Shown: positions 1,997-8,609 of the stretch, piece by piece
Layout: the number at the start of each line of letters is the position of its first letter
Numbering within the stretch: the first letter of the stretch is position 1
IMG/VR virus record: IMGVR_UViG_3300045988_058293
Coordinates: 1-38,254 of that record
DNA length: 38,254 nucleotides
Origin: a virus
Strand: one strand, 5' to 3'
The notes under the pieces: model-generated
Told to the model about the DNA's origin: nothing
The model's database searches: none
The model's input: the letters and a program-made list of their open reading frames with translations, nothing else
Program-made: the position numbers and the translations under genes

Positions 1997-2081
1997 TAAT
2001 AATAAGGGCGGTCCTATCGGGGCCGCCTATTGACACTCTCCAGGCCATACATTACAATGATTACATATGGGAGGAGGCGTC

Positions 2082-2525
2082 ATGGAATATATCAATCATT
2101 ATACTATTAATACTTCTCATAACCGGATTTCATATCCAGGAGAAGTAGACAAGAGCATATATTTTAAAATTGCAAAAATAATCAAAAAAGCCGCCGCCGG
2201 GGAGAGACCCGAAGTCATAGACGGCACATATATCACGCTGACTTCAGAACTGGATTGCTATGTGGCGACCTTATGGGCGGATGAGAAGACTCCATTATTA
2301 CTGACCGTTGGAGCAAACAGCGAAGAGGGACGCAAGAAGGTATCCAATCTCATCATTAATGATTATAAGGGACTGTATGAGGAAACACCAATACTTCCAG
2401 CGGCGCCGGTAGTAGCTGATGTTATATTACCATCGTGTATATTCATGCCAAAAGTTCTCGAATGGTCAGGAGATTTCACTCGTTGCTTAGGGTGGGCGTT
2501 GATGGCACCAGAAAAAATAAGGTAA
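2082..2525 (+). CDS. Hypothetical accessory protein (147 aa)
   Basis: ATG at 2082 with gggaggagg RBS (the track start at 2067 lacks an RBS). Followed by a terminator. Confidence 0.6.
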   Translation: MEYINHYTINTSHNRISYPGEVDKSIYFKIAKIIKKAAAGERPEVIDGTYITLTSELDCYVATLWADEKTPLLLTVGANSEEGRKKVSNLIINDYKGLYEETPILPAAPVVADVILPSCIFMPKVLEWSGDFTRCLGWALMAPEKIR

Positions 2526-2530
2526 AATAA

Positions 2531-2557
2531 AAGGGCACCCATTGAGTGTCCTTTTTT
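2531..2557. terminator. Bidirectional intrinsic terminator between convergent genes
   Basis: AAGGGCAC-CCATTGA-GTGTCCTT hairpin, A-run upstream and TTTTTT downstream. Confidence 0.6.
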
Positions 2558-2560
2558 GTG

Positions 2561-3184
2561 CTATAATGATTCAATATACATCTTAGCCGATTCATATGCC
2601 TCTTTTGTTGGAAGATCAGGAACATACCCTTCTCCACCTTCATTCACGACGTTGTTATAATTTTTAGCCCATACTTTATACTCTTTTTGGGTCATGAGTT
2701 TCTGTCCACTTGCTATGTATTTTTCGGCACTTGTAATGTACTGGAGTGCACTGGCCTTTCTACTTTCTTTTATTTTCGCTTCTTCATTTGCGTGGTACTC
2801 GCGTGCTGCTTGACTCGTTCCTGACTCTATTACATTGTCAATCCATGCTTTGTACAGATTTGCGTTTTCTTCTGTTAAGGCTACTTTTATTCCTATAATA
2901 CCTTTTGTACATCCGGCAGCTAGTGCCTTTTCATTACAAGTATTATAGAGCGCCCACGATGAAGGGGAAAAGCAAGAGTCTACTAAGTTTCCGTTGATGT
3001 AAGCCTTAAGTGATCCATGCGTTACTGGTTTTACTCCGAGGTCTATCTGGTGGCCGTCTGCATCTGATATATCGTGTTCCATTATCTCGCTGTATTCGGC
3101 AGTAAGTGTCAATTCATTACCTGATACTAAGGTTAATTTTAATGTATCTTCCATGATATCCTCCATTGATATTTCCATAATCAT
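2561..3184 (-). CDS. Hypothetical accessory protein (207 aa)
   Basis: Long minus-strand ORF downstream of the operator-containing promoter at 3475-3503. No motif recognised. Confidence 0.65.
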   Translation of the reverse strand: MIMEISMEDIMEDTLKLTLVSGNELTLTAEYSEIMEHDISDADGHQIDLGVKPVTHGSLKAYINGNLVDSCFSPSSWALYNTCNEKALAAGCTKGIIGIKVALTEENANLYKAWIDNVIESGTSQAAREYHANEEAKIKESRKASALQYITSAEKYIASGQKLMTQKEYKVWAKNYNNVVNEGGEGYVPDLPTKEAYESAKMYIESL

Positions 3185-3265
3185 CTGCTATACTGTTTGT
3201 AGATGGGGGAGCGGTGGCAAGCCCGCCCTCCCTTGTCTTTTTCCTTGTCCCGTTTGGGACTTTTT

Positions 3266-3412
3266 TTAGTTGTCCTCGATGCCTTTCTGTGTGTCGTCGA
3301 TCAATTTGTCAACCATGGTGTCGGCTTTTTCGTACTCTTTGTTTTTCAGTGCTTCTTTCAAATCTTTTAAGTCCTGTAACAGTCTTCGTAAGTAACTTTT
3401 AAATACGCTCAT
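3266..3412 (-). CDS. Small hypothetical helical protein (48 aa)
   Basis: Below the track cutoff. ATG at 3412 with gaggaggaagg RBS. MSVFKSYLRRLLQDLKDLKEALKNKEYEKADTMVDKLIDDTQKGIEDN. First gene after the promoter at 3475-3503. Confidence 0.45.
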   Translation of the reverse strand: MSVFKSYLRRLLQDLKDLKEALKNKEYEKADTMVDKLIDDTQKGIEDN

Positions 3413-3474
3413 CTCTTCGCTCAAGTTCCTTCCTCCTCGTATTCGTTAAGGCCTTGCCTCTCTTAACTGTCTTT

Positions 3475-3503
3475 ATTATACTATATATGTACATATATGT
3501 CAA
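3475..3503 (-). promoter_or_regulatory. Consensus sigma-A promoter (TTGACA-17-TATAAT) whose spacer is a 16-bp palindromic operator
   Basis: Minus strand reads TTGACA tatatgtacatatatag TATAAT. The palindrome ATATATGTACATATAT lies at 3483-3498. Confidence 0.7.
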
Positions 3504-3682
3504 GGGCTTATTCCAATTTTTTCAAATACAATTTCTTTTATTATGGTATTAACTCCCTTTCCTTCTTTGTCAGCATATTCTTTGATTTTTTCATACTGCT
3601 CTGGCTGAACATCGAGAGGGATTCGTTTGAGTTTTTTCATATACTTAATAGTTGCGTTTTTCTGAGCTTCATTATATGGCAT
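3500..3682 (-). CDS. Ribbon-helix-helix (Arc/CopG-like) DNA-binding protein, 60 aa
   Basis: ATG at 3682 with aaaggagg RBS. MPYNEAQKNATIKYMKKLKRIPLDVQPEQYEKIKEYADKEGKGVNTIIKEIVFEKIG fits a strand-helix-helix layout. Flanked by palindromic operators. Confidence 0.65.
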   Translation of the reverse strand: MPYNEAQKNATIKYMKKLKRIPLDVQPEQYEKIKEYADKEGKGVNTIIKEIVFEKIGISP

Positions 3683-3783
3683 TATGGCGCACCTCCTTTT
3701 GTAAAAGTATACCACATAGATAATATACGTTCATATATACAAAGTAGCTAAAATATATATGTACAGTTTGTGCATTTTGTGTA

Positions 3784-3812
3784 TTGATATATATGTACAT
3801 ATATAATATAAT
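3784..3812 (+). promoter_or_regulatory. Near-consensus sigma-A promoter (TTGATA-17-TATAAT) whose spacer is an 18-bp palindromic operator
   Basis: TTGATA tatatgtacatatataa TATAAT. The palindrome TATATATGTACATATATA lies at 3788-3805, with an extra half site ATATATATGTACAG at 3753-3766. Confidence 0.7.
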
Positions 3813-3855
3813 AAGATCAGAAGGAACAGGAAAACAAACAGAAAGCGAGGAGAAA

Positions 3856-4029
3856 ATGATAATTGAATTAAATGAGCGTCACAGCCTAATTATAAACAAA
3901 GACGAAGAGTACAACTGTTATGATGTAGAATTAATTGAGTACCATCCGAATAGAGTAATCAAATTTCCCATGGAGAGATATTCTGAAGATGCTCTCAAAG
4001 AAGAATATGGAATTTGTATAGAAGATTAA
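3856..4029 (+). CDS. Small hypothetical protein (57 aa), first gene of the accessory operon
   Basis: ATG at 3856 with gcgaggag RBS. The track start at 3784 is the promoter -35 box. Confidence 0.6.
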   Translation: MIIELNERHSLIINKDEEYNCYDVELIEYHPNRVIKFPMERYSEDALKEEYGICIED

Positions 4030-4035
4030 AGGATA

Positions 4036-4080
4036 ATATTCACCCGCCCCGGTCCGGTAATAGGCCGGGAGAAAAGAGGA
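4036..4080 (+). repeat. Conserved GC-rich stem-loop leader, copy 1
   Basis: atattcacccgccccggtccggtaataggccgggagaaaagagga. CCGGtCC/GGCCGG stem placed directly before the RBS. Similar to 4310-4348 and 4629-4670. Confidence 0.75.
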
Positions 4081-4083
4081 GAG

Positions 4084-4305
4084 ATGCAGGTATTAACAGG
4101 AAGTAAAAGAGAAATCACTTTAATGTTATGGAATGAACAGCTTGAAAAAGCAAAGAAAAGTTTAGAAGAAAGCAAAGAATGCTATAGGCGTTTTGGTGAC
4201 GATGATAGCAAACTATGGATTGAAGAAGATCAACGGAAAGTAGATGAAATTGAACAGGAAATCAAAGAAGTGATTGATTTTATGAACGATCATAATATCA
4301 AATAA
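4084..4305 (+). CDS. Small acidic hypothetical protein (73 aa)
   Basis: ATG with agaggagag RBS. Coiled-coil-like, Glu/Asp-rich. Confidence 0.7.
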   Translation: MQVLTGSKREITLMLWNEQLEKAKKSLEESKECYRRFGDDDSKLWIEEDQRKVDEIEQEIKEVIDFMNDHNIK

Positions 4306-4309
4306 ACAA

Positions 4310-4348
4310 GGCCCGCCCCGGTCCGGGATCAGGCCGGGAGAAAGGAAG
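4310..4348 (+). repeat. Conserved GC-rich stem-loop leader, copy 2
   Basis: ggcccgccccggtccgggatcaggccgggagaaaggaag. Confidence 0.75.
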
Positions 4349-4350
4349 AT

Positions 4351-4629
4351 ATGAGCCACATTGAAAAGATGCTTTACAAGCGCTATAAGCAACACTTCGC
4401 TGATTGCAAGACCGTACCTGGAAGCTATAATGAGATCACAAAAACAATTGATGTTATTCTTCCGGAAGGCAGAATGAAGCCATCTGGAGTACGTGGACAA
4501 AGTTACAAATATATGCATTTTGATGGCGTAGAAAGCTTAACCGGAAGAAAAGTAAACATGACAATAAAAGCAACCTGCCTTGAAAATGCAATAAAAAGAC
4601 TTCCAAAGGATTGTATATGGGAACTGTGA
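4351..4629 (+). CDS. Small hypothetical protein (92 aa)
   Basis: ATG 3 nt after the gagaaaggaag RBS of leader copy 2. Confidence 0.7.
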   Translation: MSHIEKMLYKRYKQHFADCKTVPGSYNEITKTIDVILPEGRMKPSGVRGQSYKYMHFDGVESLTGRKVNMTIKATCLENAIKRLPKDCIWEL

Positions 4630-4670
4630 TATTCACCCGTCCCGGCCGGGGAGTTCCGGGAGAAAGGAAA
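4629..4670 (+). repeat. Conserved GC-rich stem-loop leader, copy 3
   Basis: atattcacccgtcccggccggggagttccgggagaaaggaaa. Confidence 0.7.
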
Positions 4671-4675
4671 GAACC

Positions 4676-4897
4676 GTGTATGAATATATGAATTTTTCGA
4701 CCTACTTAATTGAAATGACGGGCTTGTCAATCTATGATTTCTCGGTGCTGGAATGGGGGCCATTTACGGAAGCGAAGAATATAGAGACTGTTTATGAATT
4801 CCTCCAGGAATGGCTTGAATATGGGCCATCTGAACAGCTAAAAGAAAGAGCCAGGAATGATCTTGCTGAACGTGGATATATAGAAATGGGAGTATAG
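4676..4897 (+). CDS. Small acidic hypothetical protein (73 aa)
   Basis: GTG at 4676, 5-6 nt after aaaggaaag (the in-frame ATG at 4688 is an alternative). Followed by a terminator. Confidence 0.6.
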   Translation: MYEYMNFSTYLIEMTGLSIYDFSVLEWGPFTEAKNIETVYEFLQEWLEYGPSEQLKERARNDLAERGYIEMGV

Positions 4898-4899
4898 TA

Positions 4900-4927
4900 A
4901 AGGGCGGCTCATCACCGCCCTTTCTCT
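4900..4927. terminator. Intrinsic terminator ending the small-gene operon
   Basis: AAGGGCGG-CTCATCA-CCGCCCTT followed by TCTCT. Confidence 0.7.
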
Positions 4928-5091
4928 ACGCAAAAAATACAGTCTGAGACCCTGAAAAAATTGGTTCTATATCCTCTGATCCGGTCGATCCGTAGCGTTA
5001 TTATTGACCATTCCCGTAGTTCCATTAATCTGTTCCGCATAGTTCCACCCCCTGTATTTCTAATAACGATTTGTGCGGTATGCTGTGACGC

Positions 5092-5265
5092 CTATTTTAT
5101 ATATTGTTCAAACCATTTCTGGCGCCTCGGTGCTTCCGGCGCCTTCTCTGCATCTATTTTTTTGTAAAACCCGCAGACTTCCGGGCCATCTTTACACATC
5201 TGCGTTTTTTGGTTATAGTGTGGACACTGATTAATATCAGGTGCCAGTGTACATATGTTTGCCAT
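5092..5265 (-). CDS. Small Cys-rich protein (57 aa)
   Basis: ATG at 5265 with aaaggagag RBS. MANICTLAPDINQCPHYNQKTQMCKDGPEVCGFYKKIDAEKAPEAPRRQKWFEQYIK. The longer track ORF has no RBS. Confidence 0.6.
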   Translation of the reverse strand: MANICTLAPDINQCPHYNQKTQMCKDGPEVCGFYKKIDAEKAPEAPRRQKWFEQYIK

Positions 5266-5286
5266 GATATTCTCTCCTTTGATTTT

Positions 5287-5315
5287 ATAATAACAAACAA
5301 ATGTTCGGTATGCAA
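5287..5315 (-). promoter_or_regulatory. Promoter (TTGCAT-17-TATTAT) with a LexA-box-like element in the spacer
   Basis: Minus strand reads TTGCAT aCCGAACATTTGTTTGt TATTAT. CGAACATTTGTTTG (5294-5307) has one mismatch to the GAAC-N4-GTTC core. Confidence 0.5.
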
Positions 5316-5322
5316 CTGGAAA

Positions 5323-5337
5323 AAATAGTGATTTAGC
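5323..5337 (+). repeat. Core repeat S3 (AAATAGTGATTTAGC), putative recombination site
   Basis: Same 15-mer as 5991-6005(-) and 38120-38134(-), and 13/15 identical to 37352-37366(+). Reads N-S-D-L-A in frame with the downstream ORF. Confidence 0.6.
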
Positions 5338-5641
5338 TTCTGTGACTGCGCAGTTAACAGGTACACCTGTGCTCCTCGGTCCAGGATCAATTCTTGAAAA
5401 CATAAAGTGGTATATCAAAAATCATTTACACGTAAGAGGCAGCTTTCCGTATGAGCCCGATCCCAATAATAGCAATAGGGTGTCTGACCTCCCAGCCGGA
5501 GCGGAGACTTGGGGGCGTGTGGAATGGTTCAAACTTGCCTCCGATGAATATAGGGTTATTTTATATCCTGAAAATAACGTCAAAATATATCATCGTCTTA
5601 TTGTTTCGGGTTCCTGGAGTGGCGACTGGGTGGAAAAATGA
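5324..5641 (+). other. Silent tail-fibre C-terminal cassette c (no start codon or RBS)
   Basis: Frame is open from 5294. NSDLA-SVTAQLTGTPVLLGPGS...SGSWSGDWVEK. The track start at 5342 is an internal GTG without an RBS. By eye it resembles the C-terminus of the 36933-37796 protein. Confidence 0.6.
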
Positions 5642-6004
5642 TTATAATTGGTACATAAAGCTGTCGTTAATGCGATCTGTAGCAGTTAGATTATCAAGTG
5701 CCGTCAGATATAGACACCAGATCCCATTTTCGTTTTGCCTGACGTTAAACTGTATGTTTTTTCCGGTGTTGCTGGTATCCGAGTTAATCCAGCGTACCGC
5801 CGTTGGCACAAAACCAGTAGGTATTGCACAAATCATATCAGCGACATCTTTCGATATCGACCATGCCAGCTGAAATGACATTTGCACTGATACAGTACCG
5901 TTTGATTTATAAAATTGGATTACCGTCGCTTCTCTATCTAAACGATTAGGAACAGTCGTCCGCTGCGACGATAATCGGTCTAAGAGATTCGCTAAATCAC
6001 TATT
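5642..6004 (-). other. Silent tail-fibre C-terminal cassette b (no start codon or RBS)
   Basis: Minus frame is open from 6022 to 5642. NSDLA-NLLDRLSSQRTTVPN...ENGIWCLYLTALDNLT.... Abuts cassette c tail to tail (5641|5642). Resembles cassette a (37801-38134). Confidence 0.6.
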
Positions 6005-6005
6005 T
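5991..6005 (-). repeat. Core repeat S4 (AAATAGTGATTTAGC on the minus strand), putative recombination site
   Basis: Plus strand reads gctaaatcactattt. Inverted relative to S3. In frame with cassette b. Confidence 0.6.
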
Positions 6006-6019
6006 TCATTATTAAAAAA

Positions 6020-6041
6020 TGCTTAAAGTTTTGCTTAAAGT
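6020..6041 (+). repeat. attP left arm-type repeats (2 x TGCTTAAAGT)
   Basis: TGCTTAAAGT at 6020 and 6032. The same decamer occurs twice on the other side of the tRNA fragment. Confidence 0.6.
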
Positions 6042-6141
6042 CAATATGTGCTCCAAATGGTATTATACGCTATCTATTTTTAAAGAAATCCTTATTTTAA
6101 GCCACTTTTTGCGTGTGTTACTTCTTATTATATACATTAAA

Positions 6142-6188
6142 CAACCTTGCCAAGGTTGGGGTCGCGGGTTCGATCCCCGTCTCGCGCT
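6142..6188 (+). other. 3' portion of tRNA-Gly(GCC), the likely attP core region
   Basis: caacc-TTGCCAA-ggttg anticodon arm (GCC), GCGGG-TTCGATC-CCCGT T-arm and ctcgcgc acceptor 3' strand. No matching 5' acceptor strand or D-arm upstream. Confidence 0.7.
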
Positions 6189-6211
6189 CTCTCAAAAAGC
6201 TAGTGTTTATG

Positions 6212-6241
6212 CGGATTCCCGAGTTTCGGGAGTCCGTTTTT
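6212..6241 (+). terminator. Terminator after the tRNA fragment
   Basis: GGATTCCCGA-GTT-TCGGGAGTCC hairpin followed by GTTTTT. Confidence 0.5.
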
Positions 6242-6259
6242 CGTTTACATAATGCAACT

Positions 6260-6282
6260 TGCTTAAAGTTTTTGCTTAAAGT
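6260..6282 (+). repeat. attP right arm-type repeats (2 x TGCTTAAAGT)
   Basis: TGCTTAAAGT at 6260 and 6273, adjacent to the 3' end of int. Confidence 0.6.
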
Positions 6283-6302
6283 TTTATTTGTTTTTGGTGA
6301 TA

Positions 6303-7520
6303 TCATAGCGCGCTTCGCTCCTCTATTTTCCCTCCTTCTAGCTTCCCGGCAGCGTATCCGGTAATTAAATCCATCTGCATATCTGTTTCAGCCTGTGCGT
6401 AAAACTGCATGAGTGTTTTAGGGCTGTTACCCATAACGGAGGAAATAAGGGCTGCATTTGGACAGCGCCGCATGTTATTTGTGGCGAAGCTTGTGCGGAG
6501 TCCGTACAATGTGATTTCAGGCAACAGAAAGGCCCCTTCTGGCAGTTTTCCGCGCTCTTTCTTATATTCCTCCATCTGGCGGTTATGTGCTGCTAAAAGC
6601 CGTTTAAACGCTTCTCCGTACTGATGCGGTTTGATCGGGTTGCCGTTCTGGCTGACAAAAAGAAAATCGTTATCCCCCCACGAGTGATCTATCATATGAT
6701 TTTTCCGTTTCCAGATCAGGCGCCGGTGAATGATATCGTATAAATATTTGGGGATCGGCGGCGTCCGGTGTGATCCGCCGGTTTTAAGATCGGTATCCAC
6801 TTCCCAATTATCATACCCTTTTTCAAAATCGATCATATACGTGGGCTTGCTGTTTAAACCGTTTTCGCGCAGGCCGCAGACTTCCCCAGGCCGTGCGCCC
6901 AGGAGAGCGGAGATCACGAACATGGGATAATAATGTGAAGACCTGACGTCTGGCAGATCGAGAAAATAAGTGACCATCTCATCGTTCCAGGTGACTTTCT
7001 TTTTTCTCGGCACTTTACACCGTTTAATACCTTTTACTGGATTACTGGTAATGCACTTAAGCGGATCAACAGCAAATCCGAATAAGTTTACCAGAACCGT
7101 GATGCATTTATTTACTGTCTCTGGGCTATGTTTTTCCTTCATGGCATTTACATACCGCTGTATATGTATACTTGTAATGTCAGATATGGCTCTGTCTCCG
7201 AACACGTCTTGTATATAATCTCCGTAAAACTGTGCGTATACATTCCATGTGCTGTTTGCATATACTGGTGGTTTCGTGGACTCGTGCCATAGTTTATACA
7301 CCTCGTCCACCTTTTCGGATTTTTTCGCCTTCGGAGCAGGGACCCGGCCGGCCTCGATCTCGAGTATGATTTTTGCCTCGTCCTTTTTGGCTTCTGACTT
7401 TGAAGCACGCATAGGGCCGGTGATAGCCCGCTTCTCCTCTGCGTACCAAACATTGGCAAAATACCTCGTTTTTGTTTTCCCAGTCTTTTTTGAGGTGTAG
7501 TTACTTTCCTGAATACTCAT
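6303..7520 (-). CDS. int: Tyrosine integrase
   Basis: ATG at 7520 with gaaggatga RBS (the track TTG at 7565 is less likely). Motifs LLGARPGEVCGL, LYGLRTSFATNN and MGNSPKTLMQFYAQ. Adjacent to attP. Confidence 0.9.
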   Translation of the reverse strand: MSIQESNYTSKKTGKTKTRYFANVWYAEEKRAITGPMRASKSEAKKDEAKIILEIEAGRVPAPKAKKSEKVDEVYKLWHESTKPPVYANSTWNVYAQFYGDYIQDVFGDRAISDITSIHIQRYVNAMKEKHSPETVNKCITVLVNLFGFAVDPLKCITSNPVKGIKRCKVPRKKKVTWNDEMVTYFLDLPDVRSSHYYPMFVISALLGARPGEVCGLRENGLNSKPTYMIDFEKGYDNWEVDTDLKTGGSHRTPPIPKYLYDIIHRRLIWKRKNHMIDHSWGDNDFLFVSQNGNPIKPHQYGEAFKRLLAAHNRQMEEYKKERGKLPEGAFLLPEITLYGLRTSFATNNMRRCPNAALISSVMGNSPKTLMQFYAQAETDMQMDLITGYAAGKLEGGKIEERSAL

Positions 7521-7713
7521 TGCATCATCCTTCTTTCTGGCCTGAAAGCCTGATTTTAAGCGCAAAAAAATACACCATACCGATTTACAGGTGGTGCCAG
7601 AAATGATACAATATAAGTGCTCTATTATATCGTATCGGCGCCGCGCCGGTATGTCTACTTATGCCCTCTGTGTTGGTAGCGCAGAGGGTTTATTAATTTG
7701 TAAGAAAAGGAAT

Positions 7714-8136: not shown

Positions 8137-8145
8137 TTCTCTCCC
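8121..8145. terminator. Bidirectional terminator between the small ORF and the repressor gene
   Basis: GGGAGAGA-GCAAATAGT-TCTCTCCC. Confidence 0.6.
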
Positions 8146-8516
8146 TATTTTATTCCAAGCCATGCTTTCATAAATTCTTCTATGACTTTTAATTTTTCTG
8201 GTTCTGCTTCAGCCAAAAAATTTACGCCATTCTTAACAAATTCATTTTCAGTTATTCCTAATTTTCCTAAATTAAGAGAATAGCGATCGTCTTCTGAAAT
8301 CTTTGTGAACATATTTTCTTCTCCACCTTCTCCGGTTCGGAGCCATACCTCATTCACATTAAATTCTCTACATATTGATGTAATTATTGCATTTGACGGA
8401 TTTCTATTACCTGTTTCGTAGTTTGCTATGGTATTCCTTGCGGACCCAATTTTTTTTCCGAACTCTTCTTGCGTTAGATTTAATTTGTTACGCAATTCTT
8501 TTAAGCGTTCATTCAT
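8145..8516 (-). CDS. XRE/Cro-CI-type HTH repressor without a peptidase domain (123 aa)
   Basis: MNERLKELRNKLNLTQEEFGKKIGSARNTIANYETGNRNPS is a classic HTH_XRE N-terminus. ATG at 8516 with aggtgg RBS. Divergent from the early operon. Confidence 0.85.
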   Translation of the reverse strand: MNERLKELRNKLNLTQEEFGKKIGSARNTIANYETGNRNPSNAIITSICREFNVNEVWLRTGEGGEENMFTKISEDDRYSLNLGKLGITENEFVKNGVNFLAEAEPEKLKVIEEFMKAWLGIK

Positions 8517-8540
8517 TGTTGTCACCACCTTTATGTATTT

Positions 8541-8569
8541 ATGATATCACACAATGTTCTCAATGTCAA
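8541..8569 (-). promoter_or_regulatory. Repressor promoter (TTGACA-17-TATCAT) with an operator repeat in the spacer
   Basis: Minus strand reads TTGACA ttgagaacattgtgtga TATCAT. Contains AATGTTCTCAA (8553-8563). Confidence 0.65.
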
Positions 8570-8580
8570 CAAAATAGTAC

Positions 8581-8609
8581 TTGACATGCGGCTCGATGAG
8601 ACGTATAAT
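8581..8609 (+). promoter_or_regulatory. Early lytic promoter, perfect consensus TTGACA-17-TATAAT
   Basis: TTGACA tgcggctcgatgagacg TATAAT. A second AATGTTCTCAA copy at 8607-8617 overlaps the -10 box. Confidence 0.8.

Follow-up and report, generated by a model that had tools for sequence, protein, structure and literature searches.

A ribbon-helix-helix regulator gene between two promoters with palindromic spacers in a temperate phage genome: a probable Aca-like switch for accessory cargo

The closest described system to the locus reported here is that of the anti-CRISPR-associated (Aca) protein Aca14 of Pasteurella multocida (Feussner et al., NAR 2026), a ribbon-helix-helix (RHH) protein that represses its own csx20-aca14 operon and the downstream acrIF6-cas5f operon via AT-rich inverted repeats (PMC13551039). 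Our locus lies in IMG/VR virus record IMGVR_UViG_3300045988_058293, of which positions 1 to 38,254 were analysed (the window, 38,254 nucleotides), and comprises a gene for a 60-aa RHH regulator between two strong promoters of accessory cargo genes, each with a palindrome in the spacer between its hexamers. With moderate confidence we read it as an Aca-like anti-defence switch, in which the 60-aa protein would act as a repressor at ATATATGTACATATAT and give a burst and then a shut-off of accessory cargo expression.

The comparison with Aca14 is one of description rather than of sequence. Both systems have a small RHH protein and AT-rich inverted repeats over promoter elements, with repression (predicted, in our case) of the regulator's own operon and of an adjacent downstream operon, and both have co-opted cas homologues as cargo (csx20 and cas5f there, truncated cas8c in sister loci here). 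The host of Aca14 belongs to the Gammaproteobacteria, whereas the module described here is found in phages of Lachnospiraceae; the Aca14 repeat overlaps the -10, whereas the operator here fills the spacer between -35 and -10; and aca14 is the last gene of its operon, whereas the regulator here is monocistronic, lies upstream of cargo and is accompanied by a divergent third promoter. No small RNA (sRNA) or conserved small open reading frame (ORF) is reported for Aca14. A first-pass annotation of the window had set its arrangement of two operons under one central RHH gene apart from Aca systems; the layout is real, but Aca14 provides a precedent (PMC13551039). The classical helix-turn-helix (HTH) Aca regulators (Aca1, Aca2 and others) likewise offer an inverted repeat in a strong early promoter, a small co-encoded negative-feedback regulator and a conserved regulatory region followed by small acidic cargo that varies, and neighbouring operons are also regulated (PMC13551039). 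They differ from our locus in that the fold here is RHH (HTH_26 and AbrB versions of the module exist) and in that the regulator is upstream of the cargo.

In phage P22, the Arc operator lies between the -35 and -10 of the very strong promoter Pant. The P22 immI region is the closest architectural analogue of the locus, with RHH repressors, divergent promoters that share an operator region and a small intercistronic antisense RNA; it includes Mnt, Arc, the promoters Pant and Pmnt, the sar RNA and ant, and lies in a moron with high gene flux (PMC2629481). The window's regulator has only distant, fold-level similarity to Arc (E 0.04-1.4) and is one regulator as against two, the sRNA here lies off the downstream ribosome-binding site (RBS) and has an invariant core, there is no ant homologue, and the sister cargo is anti-CRISPR-like. 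Omega of plasmid pSM19035 and CopG are also small autoregulating RHH repressors, and omega controls several promoters through repeated short sites; these are heptad arrays, in contrast to the single 16-18-nt spacer palindrome here, and the two proteins serve plasmid copy-number and partition control rather than phage accessory islands. The regulatory principle is known, but its implementation here appears undescribed, as does the wider family of loci with interchangeable regulator folds and an invariant sRNA.

Operators in the cargo promoters and upstream of the regulator gene

A promoter scan placed a 12/12 cargo promoter on the minus strand at 3475-3503 (TTGACA 3503-3498, 17-nt spacer, TATAAT 3480-3475) and a divergent cargo promoter, scoring 11/12, on the plus strand at 3784-3812 (TTGATA 3784-3789, 17-nt spacer, TATAAT 3807-3812). 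The spacer of the first is filled by operator O1 (3483-3498), an exact 16-nt palindrome, ATATATGTACATATAT, and that of the second holds operator O4, an exact copy of ATATATGTACATATAT at 3789-3804 within an 18-nt perfect palindrome at 3788-3805. A single 31-nt cassette thus appears twice, in inverted orientation, as the two promoters, with 94% complementarity between the copies. Two further sites lie upstream of the regulator gene, O2 (3723-3738, ATATACGTTCATATAT), which is imperfect with 2 mismatches to ATATATGTACATATAT, and O3 (3753-3770, ATATATATGTACAG...), a middle site of half-site quality. The centres of the sites are at 3490.5 (O1), 3730.5 (O2), 3762.5 (O3) and 3796.5 (O4), so that O2 and O3 are 32 bp apart and O3 and O4 34 bp apart, and the upstream sites would therefore be on the same face of the DNA. 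Matches to ATATATGTACATATAT with no more than 3 mismatches occur three times in 38 kb, against an expectation of 0.46, and all lie within 3483-3804. Promoters scoring at least 11/12 with a perfect palindrome of at least 14 nt in the spacer are found twice in the window and were absent from 600 Markov-simulated 38-kb sequences.

Both spacer palindromes had been described in the first-pass annotation, within a minus-strand TTGACA-17-TATAAT (3483-3498) and a plus-strand TTGATA-17-TATAAT promoter (3788-3805), and are confirmed by the sequence and by the scan; the half site it had seen at 3753-3766, upstream of the RHH gene, is present as described. The same annotation had both promoters firing outward from a central regulator. 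The promoters are real, but the minus-strand one is downstream of the RHH gene and faces the same direction, with the RHH stop codon TGA (3502-3500) inside its -35, and the order is divergent cargo promoter, regulator promoter, regulator gene and second cargo promoter.

The regulator gene occupies 3500-3682 on the minus strand, with an RBS, AGGAGGTG, at 3697-3690. The 60-aa ORF is as first annotated, when the product was called Arc/CopG-like, and its profile matches are all to RHH families. Those in Pfam (DUF6290 at 18.2 bits, RHH_7, NikA-like, ParD and RHH_1) fall below curated cut-offs, the PHROG match is to an Arc-like repressor (3e-4), and a profile built with 21 homologues matched AvtR (6e-4), Arc, HP0222 and ParG in the PDB. 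The regulator of one sister locus (L060) clears the Pfam cut-offs for NikA-like, DUF6290 and TacA1. Homologues of the 60-aa protein form a small family of 24 clusters in which KKLKRIPLDV is invariant (21 homologues). The AlphaFold2 (AF2) monomer has helices at residues 5-17, 27-40 and 44-56 and an extended segment at 18-26, an order compatible with the RHH fold, but the model, of a single chain of an obligate dimer, is unreliable, with a predicted local distance difference test (pLDDT) score of 59.7. By its sequence profiles we assign the protein to the RHH (Arc/MetJ/CopG) superfamily.

A putative promoter for the RHH gene was read from the sequence at 3706-3733 on the minus strand (TGAACG 3733-3728, 16-nt spacing, and an extended -10, TGg-TATACT, at 3714-3706); it scores under the 9/12 threshold of the scan, and O2 lies over its -35. 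An equivalent layout, in which the proximal operator has its core (TGTACA or TGAACA) at the -35 and the -10 is extended or near-extended, is clearest in two related loci (L023 and L022) and less clean in a third (L004, with 15-nt spacing). We regard the window's sequence as the probable promoter of the RHH gene. Because its -35 coincides with the centre of O2, and because this layout recurs in relatives, the arrangement points to O2 as an autoregulation site and to an autoregulated RHH gene. As in Aca systems, the inverted repeat is present in the cargo promoters (O1 and O4) and in the promoter of the regulator (O2).

Variation of regulator, operator and cargo among related loci

We took as close relatives those loci in which the RHH protein is 75-100% identical to that of the window (L001-L005, L023-L031 and L034). 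A search for the cassette in related prophages, as proposed with the first-pass annotation, found the operator positions kept in all close relatives, with differing cargo. Where the cassette is intact, the downstream operator lies 2-3 nt past the RHH stop, inside a TTGAnn-17/18-TATAnT promoter, and the O1 equivalent at +2/+3 is exact or has 1 mismatch in L001-L005, L023, L025, L028 and L031. Upstream of the gene, 12 clade-A loci have the proximal site corresponding to O2, 55 to 58 nt before the RHH start codon; the middle site corresponding to O3 is found at about -87 in L003, L004, L023 and L034, and the distal site at about -122, in the spacer of the divergent promoter, wherever a relative has one. 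A divergent promoter with a spacer operator is also present in L001-L004 and L034, and L019, L022 and clade B have one in which the operator is a different one; that of L023 is a weaker version with an 18-nt spacer, as read by eye.

The cargo behind these conserved promoters varies, with products of 52 aa and 197 aa in the window, 48 aa in L004, 108 aa in L031, a 171-aa zinc-ribbon protein and 162 aa in L005 and L025-L030, and, in L023/L024, four products of 106 aa, 235 aa, 276 aa (a truncated Cas8c) and 82 aa. The first plus-strand gene also differs between relatives that share the promoter and the 5' untranslated region (5'UTR). L032 and L034 are decayed copies in which the downstream operator/promoter arrangement is gone. 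In L032 (4001-4210), which sits in a chromosomal defence-gene cluster with SymE, GmrSD, HEPN and RelB-Fic, a deletion has removed operator and promoter, and the RHH protein is extended to 69 aa; in L034 (4001-4171), the C-terminus of the RHH protein runs into the operator as the result of a deletion.

Among more distant loci, regulators with the beta-strand KRIPLDV are always paired with a GTAC-core palindrome, the flanks of which vary (L010, L019, L022 and L110). The RHH proteins of the first three are 42-53% identical to the window's, and L110 has the same motif. These distant loci have three upstream palindromes, with one copy in the spacer of the divergent promoter; the palindrome is GTTATGTACATAAC in L022, where there are three copies, ACTGCGTACGTAGT in L019 and CTATACGTACGTATAG in L110. 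In clade B, the RHH proteins of which share 51% identity with the clade-A type across their first 41 residues (E 9e-13), KEIRFRV replaces KRIPLDV, and the loci (L035, L040, L045 and L046) carry TATAGCGCGCTATA at -120, at -54 and in both promoter spacers, the promoters being a divergent TTGAAA-17-TATAAT and a downstream TTGACA-17-TATAAT. Phage phiCs5676-1 has its own variants of the clade-B palindrome in an unchanged layout, and in L045 the gene behind the clade-B cassette is homologous to the window's 52-aa gene, so that hexamers, spacing, 5'UTR and cargo remain constant there while the DNA-reading strand and the spacer sequence change jointly. A third type of RHH protein, with the beta-strand ISIRL, is paired with TATAGCATGCTATA. 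Sorted by beta-strand, the operator cores are GTAC for KRIPLDV, GCGC for KEIRFRV and GCATGC for ISIRL. Because the beta-strand of the regulator and the spacer palindrome change together on a constant scaffold, the comparison gives strong, though indirect, support to binding of the RHH protein to the palindromes, and it is the best evidence for such binding.

It could be argued that the palindromes are no operators but the AT-rich spacer of a duplicated strong promoter, and that the intervening ORF is an unrelated regulator or no gene. The cargo promoters are near-identical inverted copies, such that duplication alone gives two exact palindromes, and the RHH family matches are sub-threshold. 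We nonetheless rejected this explanation, which seems barely credible given that extra palindrome copies, each a fixed distance away from the RHH start codon, stand outside the promoter spacers, that the palindrome varies with beta-strand and regulator fold in dozens of loci with consensus hexamers throughout, and that the ORF is conserved, down to the invariant KKLKRIPLDV. The proposal made from the window alone, that one small repressor clamps two strong promoters, gains support from the conserved sites, the co-varying operator and the changing cargo.

A shared module with an invariant small RNA

Between the two minus-strand cargo ORFs, and facing the RHH-controlled promoter, lies a convergent sRNA gene on the plus strand (3166-3267). 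Its promoter consists of TTGATA (3166-3171), 17 nt and TGc-TATACT (TATACT at 3189-3194), and the predicted RNA extends over about 3201-3267, with a 27-nt core at 3206-3232 and a terminator at 3247-3267. The RNA would be about 65-68 nt long, with a fold of -32.2 kcal/mol (z -4.4). The core, GGGGAGCGGTGGCAAGCCCGCCCTCCC, occurs exactly in 65 IMG/VR contigs and in more than 120 metagenome stretches, always as a single copy. An extended -10 promoter ends 8-13 nt before the core in 114 of 122 distinct contexts (12 on the control strand), and a hairpin and T-run terminator is found in 92 of the 122, with hairpin sequences that differ. Covariation of the basal stem is 0.221, compared with 0.100 +/- 0.011 for shuffled alignments (0 of 500 reach the observed value) and 0.04-0.09 when the stem is slid, and many of its G-U pairs are valid on the sRNA strand only. 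An Rfam scan of 2000-6400 at E <= 1 gave no match to the sRNA, CRISPR-DR families included, and returned only a tRNA-like fragment (see below) and a chance sRNA match. Some 45 nt separate the start of the sRNA from the next gene's RBS, and its overlap is limited to the 3' end of the upstream small ORF; a search for trans targets within the window found chance 9-mers only.

Two other identities for the 27-mer were considered. An attP core was rejected on account of the flanking promoter and terminator in most contexts, and the co-varying basal stem with its one-strand G-U pairs is also against it; the tRNA-like fragment is the likelier attP. We did not favour a CRISPR-repeat mimic, such as an RNA anti-CRISPR built as a solitary repeat unit (Racr), the core being never arrayed in the loci collected and lacking the ATTGAAA handle of type I-C repeats.

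The sRNA belongs to a module that is ordered as a regulator (RHH, AbrB or HTH), a consensus promoter with a variable spacer, a ~50-aa ORF, the sRNA and hypervariable cargo; about 245-275 nt lie between the sRNA and the strong promoter that faces it. Of 120 distinct contexts examined for this promoter, 96 have a score of at least 10/12, 79 of at least 11 and 38 of 12/12, with controls at or below 10/12. There are 66 different spacers among the sRNA-facing promoters, many of them palindromic, and they cluster by regulator type. The gene upstream of the promoter encodes a regulator of the HTH_26 type in 43 of 88 loci, an RHH protein in 27 and an AbrB/MazE-like protein in 8; the remaining 10 are unclassified, about half of them resembling another HTH type and some not being regulators. 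The constant parts are the hexamers, a 5'UTR hairpin, the sRNA and the acidic helical ~50-aa ORF, which comes in a few related types. Homologues of the window's 52-aa gene, for instance, are found under RHH clade-A, RHH clade-B, RHH-C, AbrB-type and HTH-type cassettes. On this comparison, the RHH cassette of the window is one exchangeable lock on a shared module.

A nucleotide search of isolated phages gave 3 weak matches, and both of the 2 that were inspected have the module. Clostridium phage phiCs5676-1 (C. scindens DSM 5676; OR574845.1, about 23.4-24.0 kb, L112) has the full module with a clade-B RHH regulator, and Blautia phage Montmirail (Blautia coccoides; ON453898.1, about 44.4-45.1 kb, L113) has the full module with an AbrB-type regulator. 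The module genes of both phages are all annotated as hypothetical.

The regulators found in the module (RHH, AbrB/MazE and HTH-XRE) have classical antitoxin folds, with weak matches to ParD, RelB, TacA and MazE models, and the convergent overlap of small ORF and sRNA resembles type I loci of Firmicute prophages. One relative (L032) has as neighbours a RelB-Fic pair and a cluster with HEPN and GmrSD. The RHH protein might accordingly be a type II antitoxin-like protein, or the small ORF and sRNA a type I pair, in a toxin-antitoxin or prophage-maintenance system. We rejected this as very improbable. No toxin family is among the library matches of the window's proteins, and the regulators are bare ~60-aa DNA-binding domains without a toxin-binding tail. 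The RHH gene is separated from the next gene by a full consensus promoter, unlike a co-transcribed type II pair; the small ORFs encode acidic, hydrophilic proteins (pI 4.8) rather than the membrane peptides of type I systems; and L032 is a decayed copy that has lost its operator and promoter.

An RHH operator in the spacer of a near-consensus promoter with a divergent promoter nearby, a convergent ~65-nt sRNA in an intercistronic region, 66 spacer variants on one constant promoter scaffold, and a constant small ORF and sRNA ahead of variable downstream genes would also suit an immunity and antirepressor region akin to P22 immI, with its two repressors, antisense RNA and downstream effector in a moron (PMC2629481). 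The RHH protein would then keep the lysogen repressed, the sRNA would block residual expression, the small ORF or the 197-aa protein would antagonise the prophage repressor or another host or phage regulator, and the operators would define heteroimmunity groups. We consider this unlikely. No ANT, KilA or Bro domain is present in the window's cargo or in ~30 cargo representatives scanned, and recognisable cargo is of anti-CRISPR rather than antirepressor type. The sRNA, unlike sar, does not cover an RBS, and its 27-nt core is invariant despite differing flanking genes. Moreover, the genome has a separate cI/cro-type switch with strong promoters at 8541-8609.

A further reading, which we put forward tentatively and think less probable than not, is that the conserved payload of the module is the sRNA with its ~50-aa partner, as an RNA-based regulatory or anti-defence device, the more than 60 operator variants, under three regulator folds, being heteroimmunity determinants that would keep a resident prophage from silencing the anti-defence burst of a newly arriving phage. 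One possibility under this reading is that the sRNA serves as a decoy for a conserved host RNA-binding factor.

Cargo and the proposed switch

Downstream of the sRNA we collected 348 ORFs in 183 clusters from 165 contexts; some are spurious antisense ORFs, and most of the real ones have no family. The first cargo gene of L063 encodes a 68-aa AcrIC5-family protein (32.2 bits against a Pfam cut-off of 27). An AcrIC5 homologue of Bifidobacterium is co-encoded with an RNA anti-CRISPR (PMC10651486). Truncated Cas8c homologues are found in L220 and in L023/L024, that of L023 (2343-3173) lying behind a clade-A RHH regulator 81% identical to the window's. These belong to a clade of solo truncated Cas8c N-terminal proteins with at least 59 clusters, on phages and conjugative elements, mostly of 220-300 aa; the matches in the Cas8c search measure 152-309 aa with one exception, and none exceeds 479 aa, with no typical full-length Cas8c among them. 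Three clusters are fused to an AcrIC5 domain, and one such fusion, on a conjugative element, lies directly behind an HTH_26 regulator and the promoter TTGACA-(CCTAATATTAGG)-TATACT, a regulator and operator whose type is also found in the phage modules. Phage-encoded homologues of Cas subunits act as anti-CRISPRs, for example AcrIB3 and AcrIB4 (10.1101/2023.06.24.545427; 10.1101/2025.06.06.658234), and we regard the truncated Cas8c proteins as candidate type I-C anti-CRISPRs that would act by subunit mimicry.

Members of this clade include P0035-P0093 and L234 4001-4777, one of which is named Cas8c/Csd1 at NCBI. On another conjugative element (L235, about 3336-3364), a truncated-Cas8c operon is driven by TTGACT-17-TATAAT with the spacer palindrome GCGCCAATATTGGCG; the position directly upstream is not taken by a regulator gene. 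In these bacteria, a palindrome in the spacer may mark anti-defence promoters in general.

The anti-CRISPR-type cargo of sister loci makes the Aca-like anti-defence switch the best reading of the locus. The resemblance to Aca logic drawn in the first-pass annotation is upheld by the AcrIC5-family and truncated Cas8c proteins, although that account was incomplete, having missed the autoregulation, the sRNA, the small ORF and the interchangeable regulators. In the switch that we propose, O1 and O4 would be high-affinity sites in the spacers of two near-consensus sigma-A promoters. On entry of the DNA into a cell without RHH protein, both promoters, of immediate-early strength, would fire and cargo would be expressed at once; as RHH protein accumulates it would occupy the spacers, exclude RNA polymerase and repress its own gene, giving a burst followed by a shut-off. 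Such logic is that of Aca repressors at anti-CRISPR operons and of P22 Arc at Pant. Cooperative autorepression would come from O2 and O3, the weaker sites, with a phasing of about three helical turns. In a lysogen, autoregulated RHH protein would hold cargo expression low and would silence promoters of the same specificity on incoming phage, and this silencing of homo-specific copies would select for diverse specificities. Read-through into the variable cargo would probably be curbed further by the convergent sRNA, the hairpin of which might instead act in trans. The cargo slots would form a hypervariable anti-defence island.

Several points weigh against this switch. The RHH assignment rests on profile matches below threshold, together with a poor AF2 monomer (pLDDT 59.7), and promoter activity, binding, repression, timing and cargo function are all inferred from the DNA sequence. 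The window's cargo has no above-threshold match in Pfam, PHROGs, PADLOC or NCBIfam and none to an Acr, anti-defence or defence family, and the 197-aa cargo protein has no significant structural match in the PDB or BFVD. Classical acr-aca operons have the regulator last in the same operon, an order that differs from that found here. The conserved ~50-aa ORF and the invariant sRNA are unexplained by an Aca model, and the many operator specificities fit an immunity/antirepressor module equally well.

The first minus-strand cargo gene (3266-3424) encodes the 52-aa acidic helical protein (MSEEMSVFKSYLRRLL...TQKGIEDN), which is hydrophilic, with a pI of 4.79 and a net charge of -3.5. The cargo operons had initially been given as 3412-2561 and 3856-4897; a TTG start at 3424 is more likely than 3412 for this first ORF, because the RBS spacing fits and the N-terminus is conserved in relatives. 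The second gene (2561-3154, in an ORF listed as 2561-3184) encodes an acidic protein of 197-207 aa and probably starts at 3154; its homologues begin at the equivalent of MEDTLK, and the gene is linked to the module in L035-L039. The AF2 model of the 197-aa protein is good (pLDDT 91.7), and Foldseek gave no match in the PDB at E <= 0.001 and only one uncharacterised phage protein in BFVD. The very 5' end of the operator-controlled transcript carries a 5'UTR hairpin, GTTAAG...CTTAAC (3445-3467, minus strand), the stem of which has compensatory changes in L031, L035 and L046; it may be an mRNA-stabilising or regulator-binding element.

The plus-strand cargo operon (3856-4897) has four ORFs, at 3856-4029 (57 aa), 4084-4305 (73 aa), 4351-4629 (92 aa) and 4676-4897 (73 aa). 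Three of the four proteins are acidic, and a terminator-like hairpin follows at about 4899-4925. Three GC-rich intercistronic hairpins of the form CCCGG...CCGGG (4036-4080, 4305-4349 and 4629-4670, plus strand; repeat families D1-D3) lie directly 5' of each downstream RBS, and L063 has related elements, CCGG...CCGGG-GAAAGG, ahead of its cargo genes. Such hairpins may serve in processing or stabilisation or may mark the boundaries of cassettes. Most of the window's cargo proteins are small and acidic (pI 4.2-5.0), which is weakly suggestive of, and compatible with, an anti-CRISPR role.

The genome is temperate and siphovirus-like, with holin (555-1049), endolysin (1157-1996) and integrase (6303-7565, minus strand) genes, a cI-like repressor gene (8145-8528, minus strand) and a divergent pair of promoters scoring at least 11/12 at 8541-8609. 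The cassette is in an accessory region, with the lysis genes on one side and the probable attP on the other. Adjoining the integrase gene is the tRNA-like fragment (about 6126-6232), which scores 24.9 bits against the Rfam tRNA model over 6126-6180, below threshold, and in which ARAGORN called no tRNA; ~50 nt of it match unrelated Staphylococcus, Enterococcus and Acinetobacter phages. It is probably an attP core derived from a tRNA 3' end. An 11/12 promoter without a palindrome, TTGACA-17-TACAAT (2030-2058, plus strand), precedes a 152-aa ORF (2067-2525, plus strand), which has no family, is convergent with the 197-aa cargo gene and is kept beside it in L035-L039.

The module is directly testable, being present in the cultured phages phiCs5676-1 and Montmirail, and its widespread, structurally supported phage sRNA is absent from Rfam. 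Its conserved scaffold, 5'UTR, small ORF and sRNA core provide a handle for finding anti-defence genes in phages of gut Firmicutes, the cargo slot so marked holding 183 protein clusters in 165 contexts, almost all of them unannotated. The 66 or more spacer variants, with RHH, AbrB and HTH regulators and a single consensus sigma-A promoter as scaffold, constitute a natural library of orthogonal repressors and operators that could serve in circuits for Clostridia. Anti-defence control by an operator in the promoter spacer would be more general than has been described, in that the idea of an RHH-type Aca would extend from Proteobacteria to Lachnospiraceae, with a regulator fold that is exchangeable.

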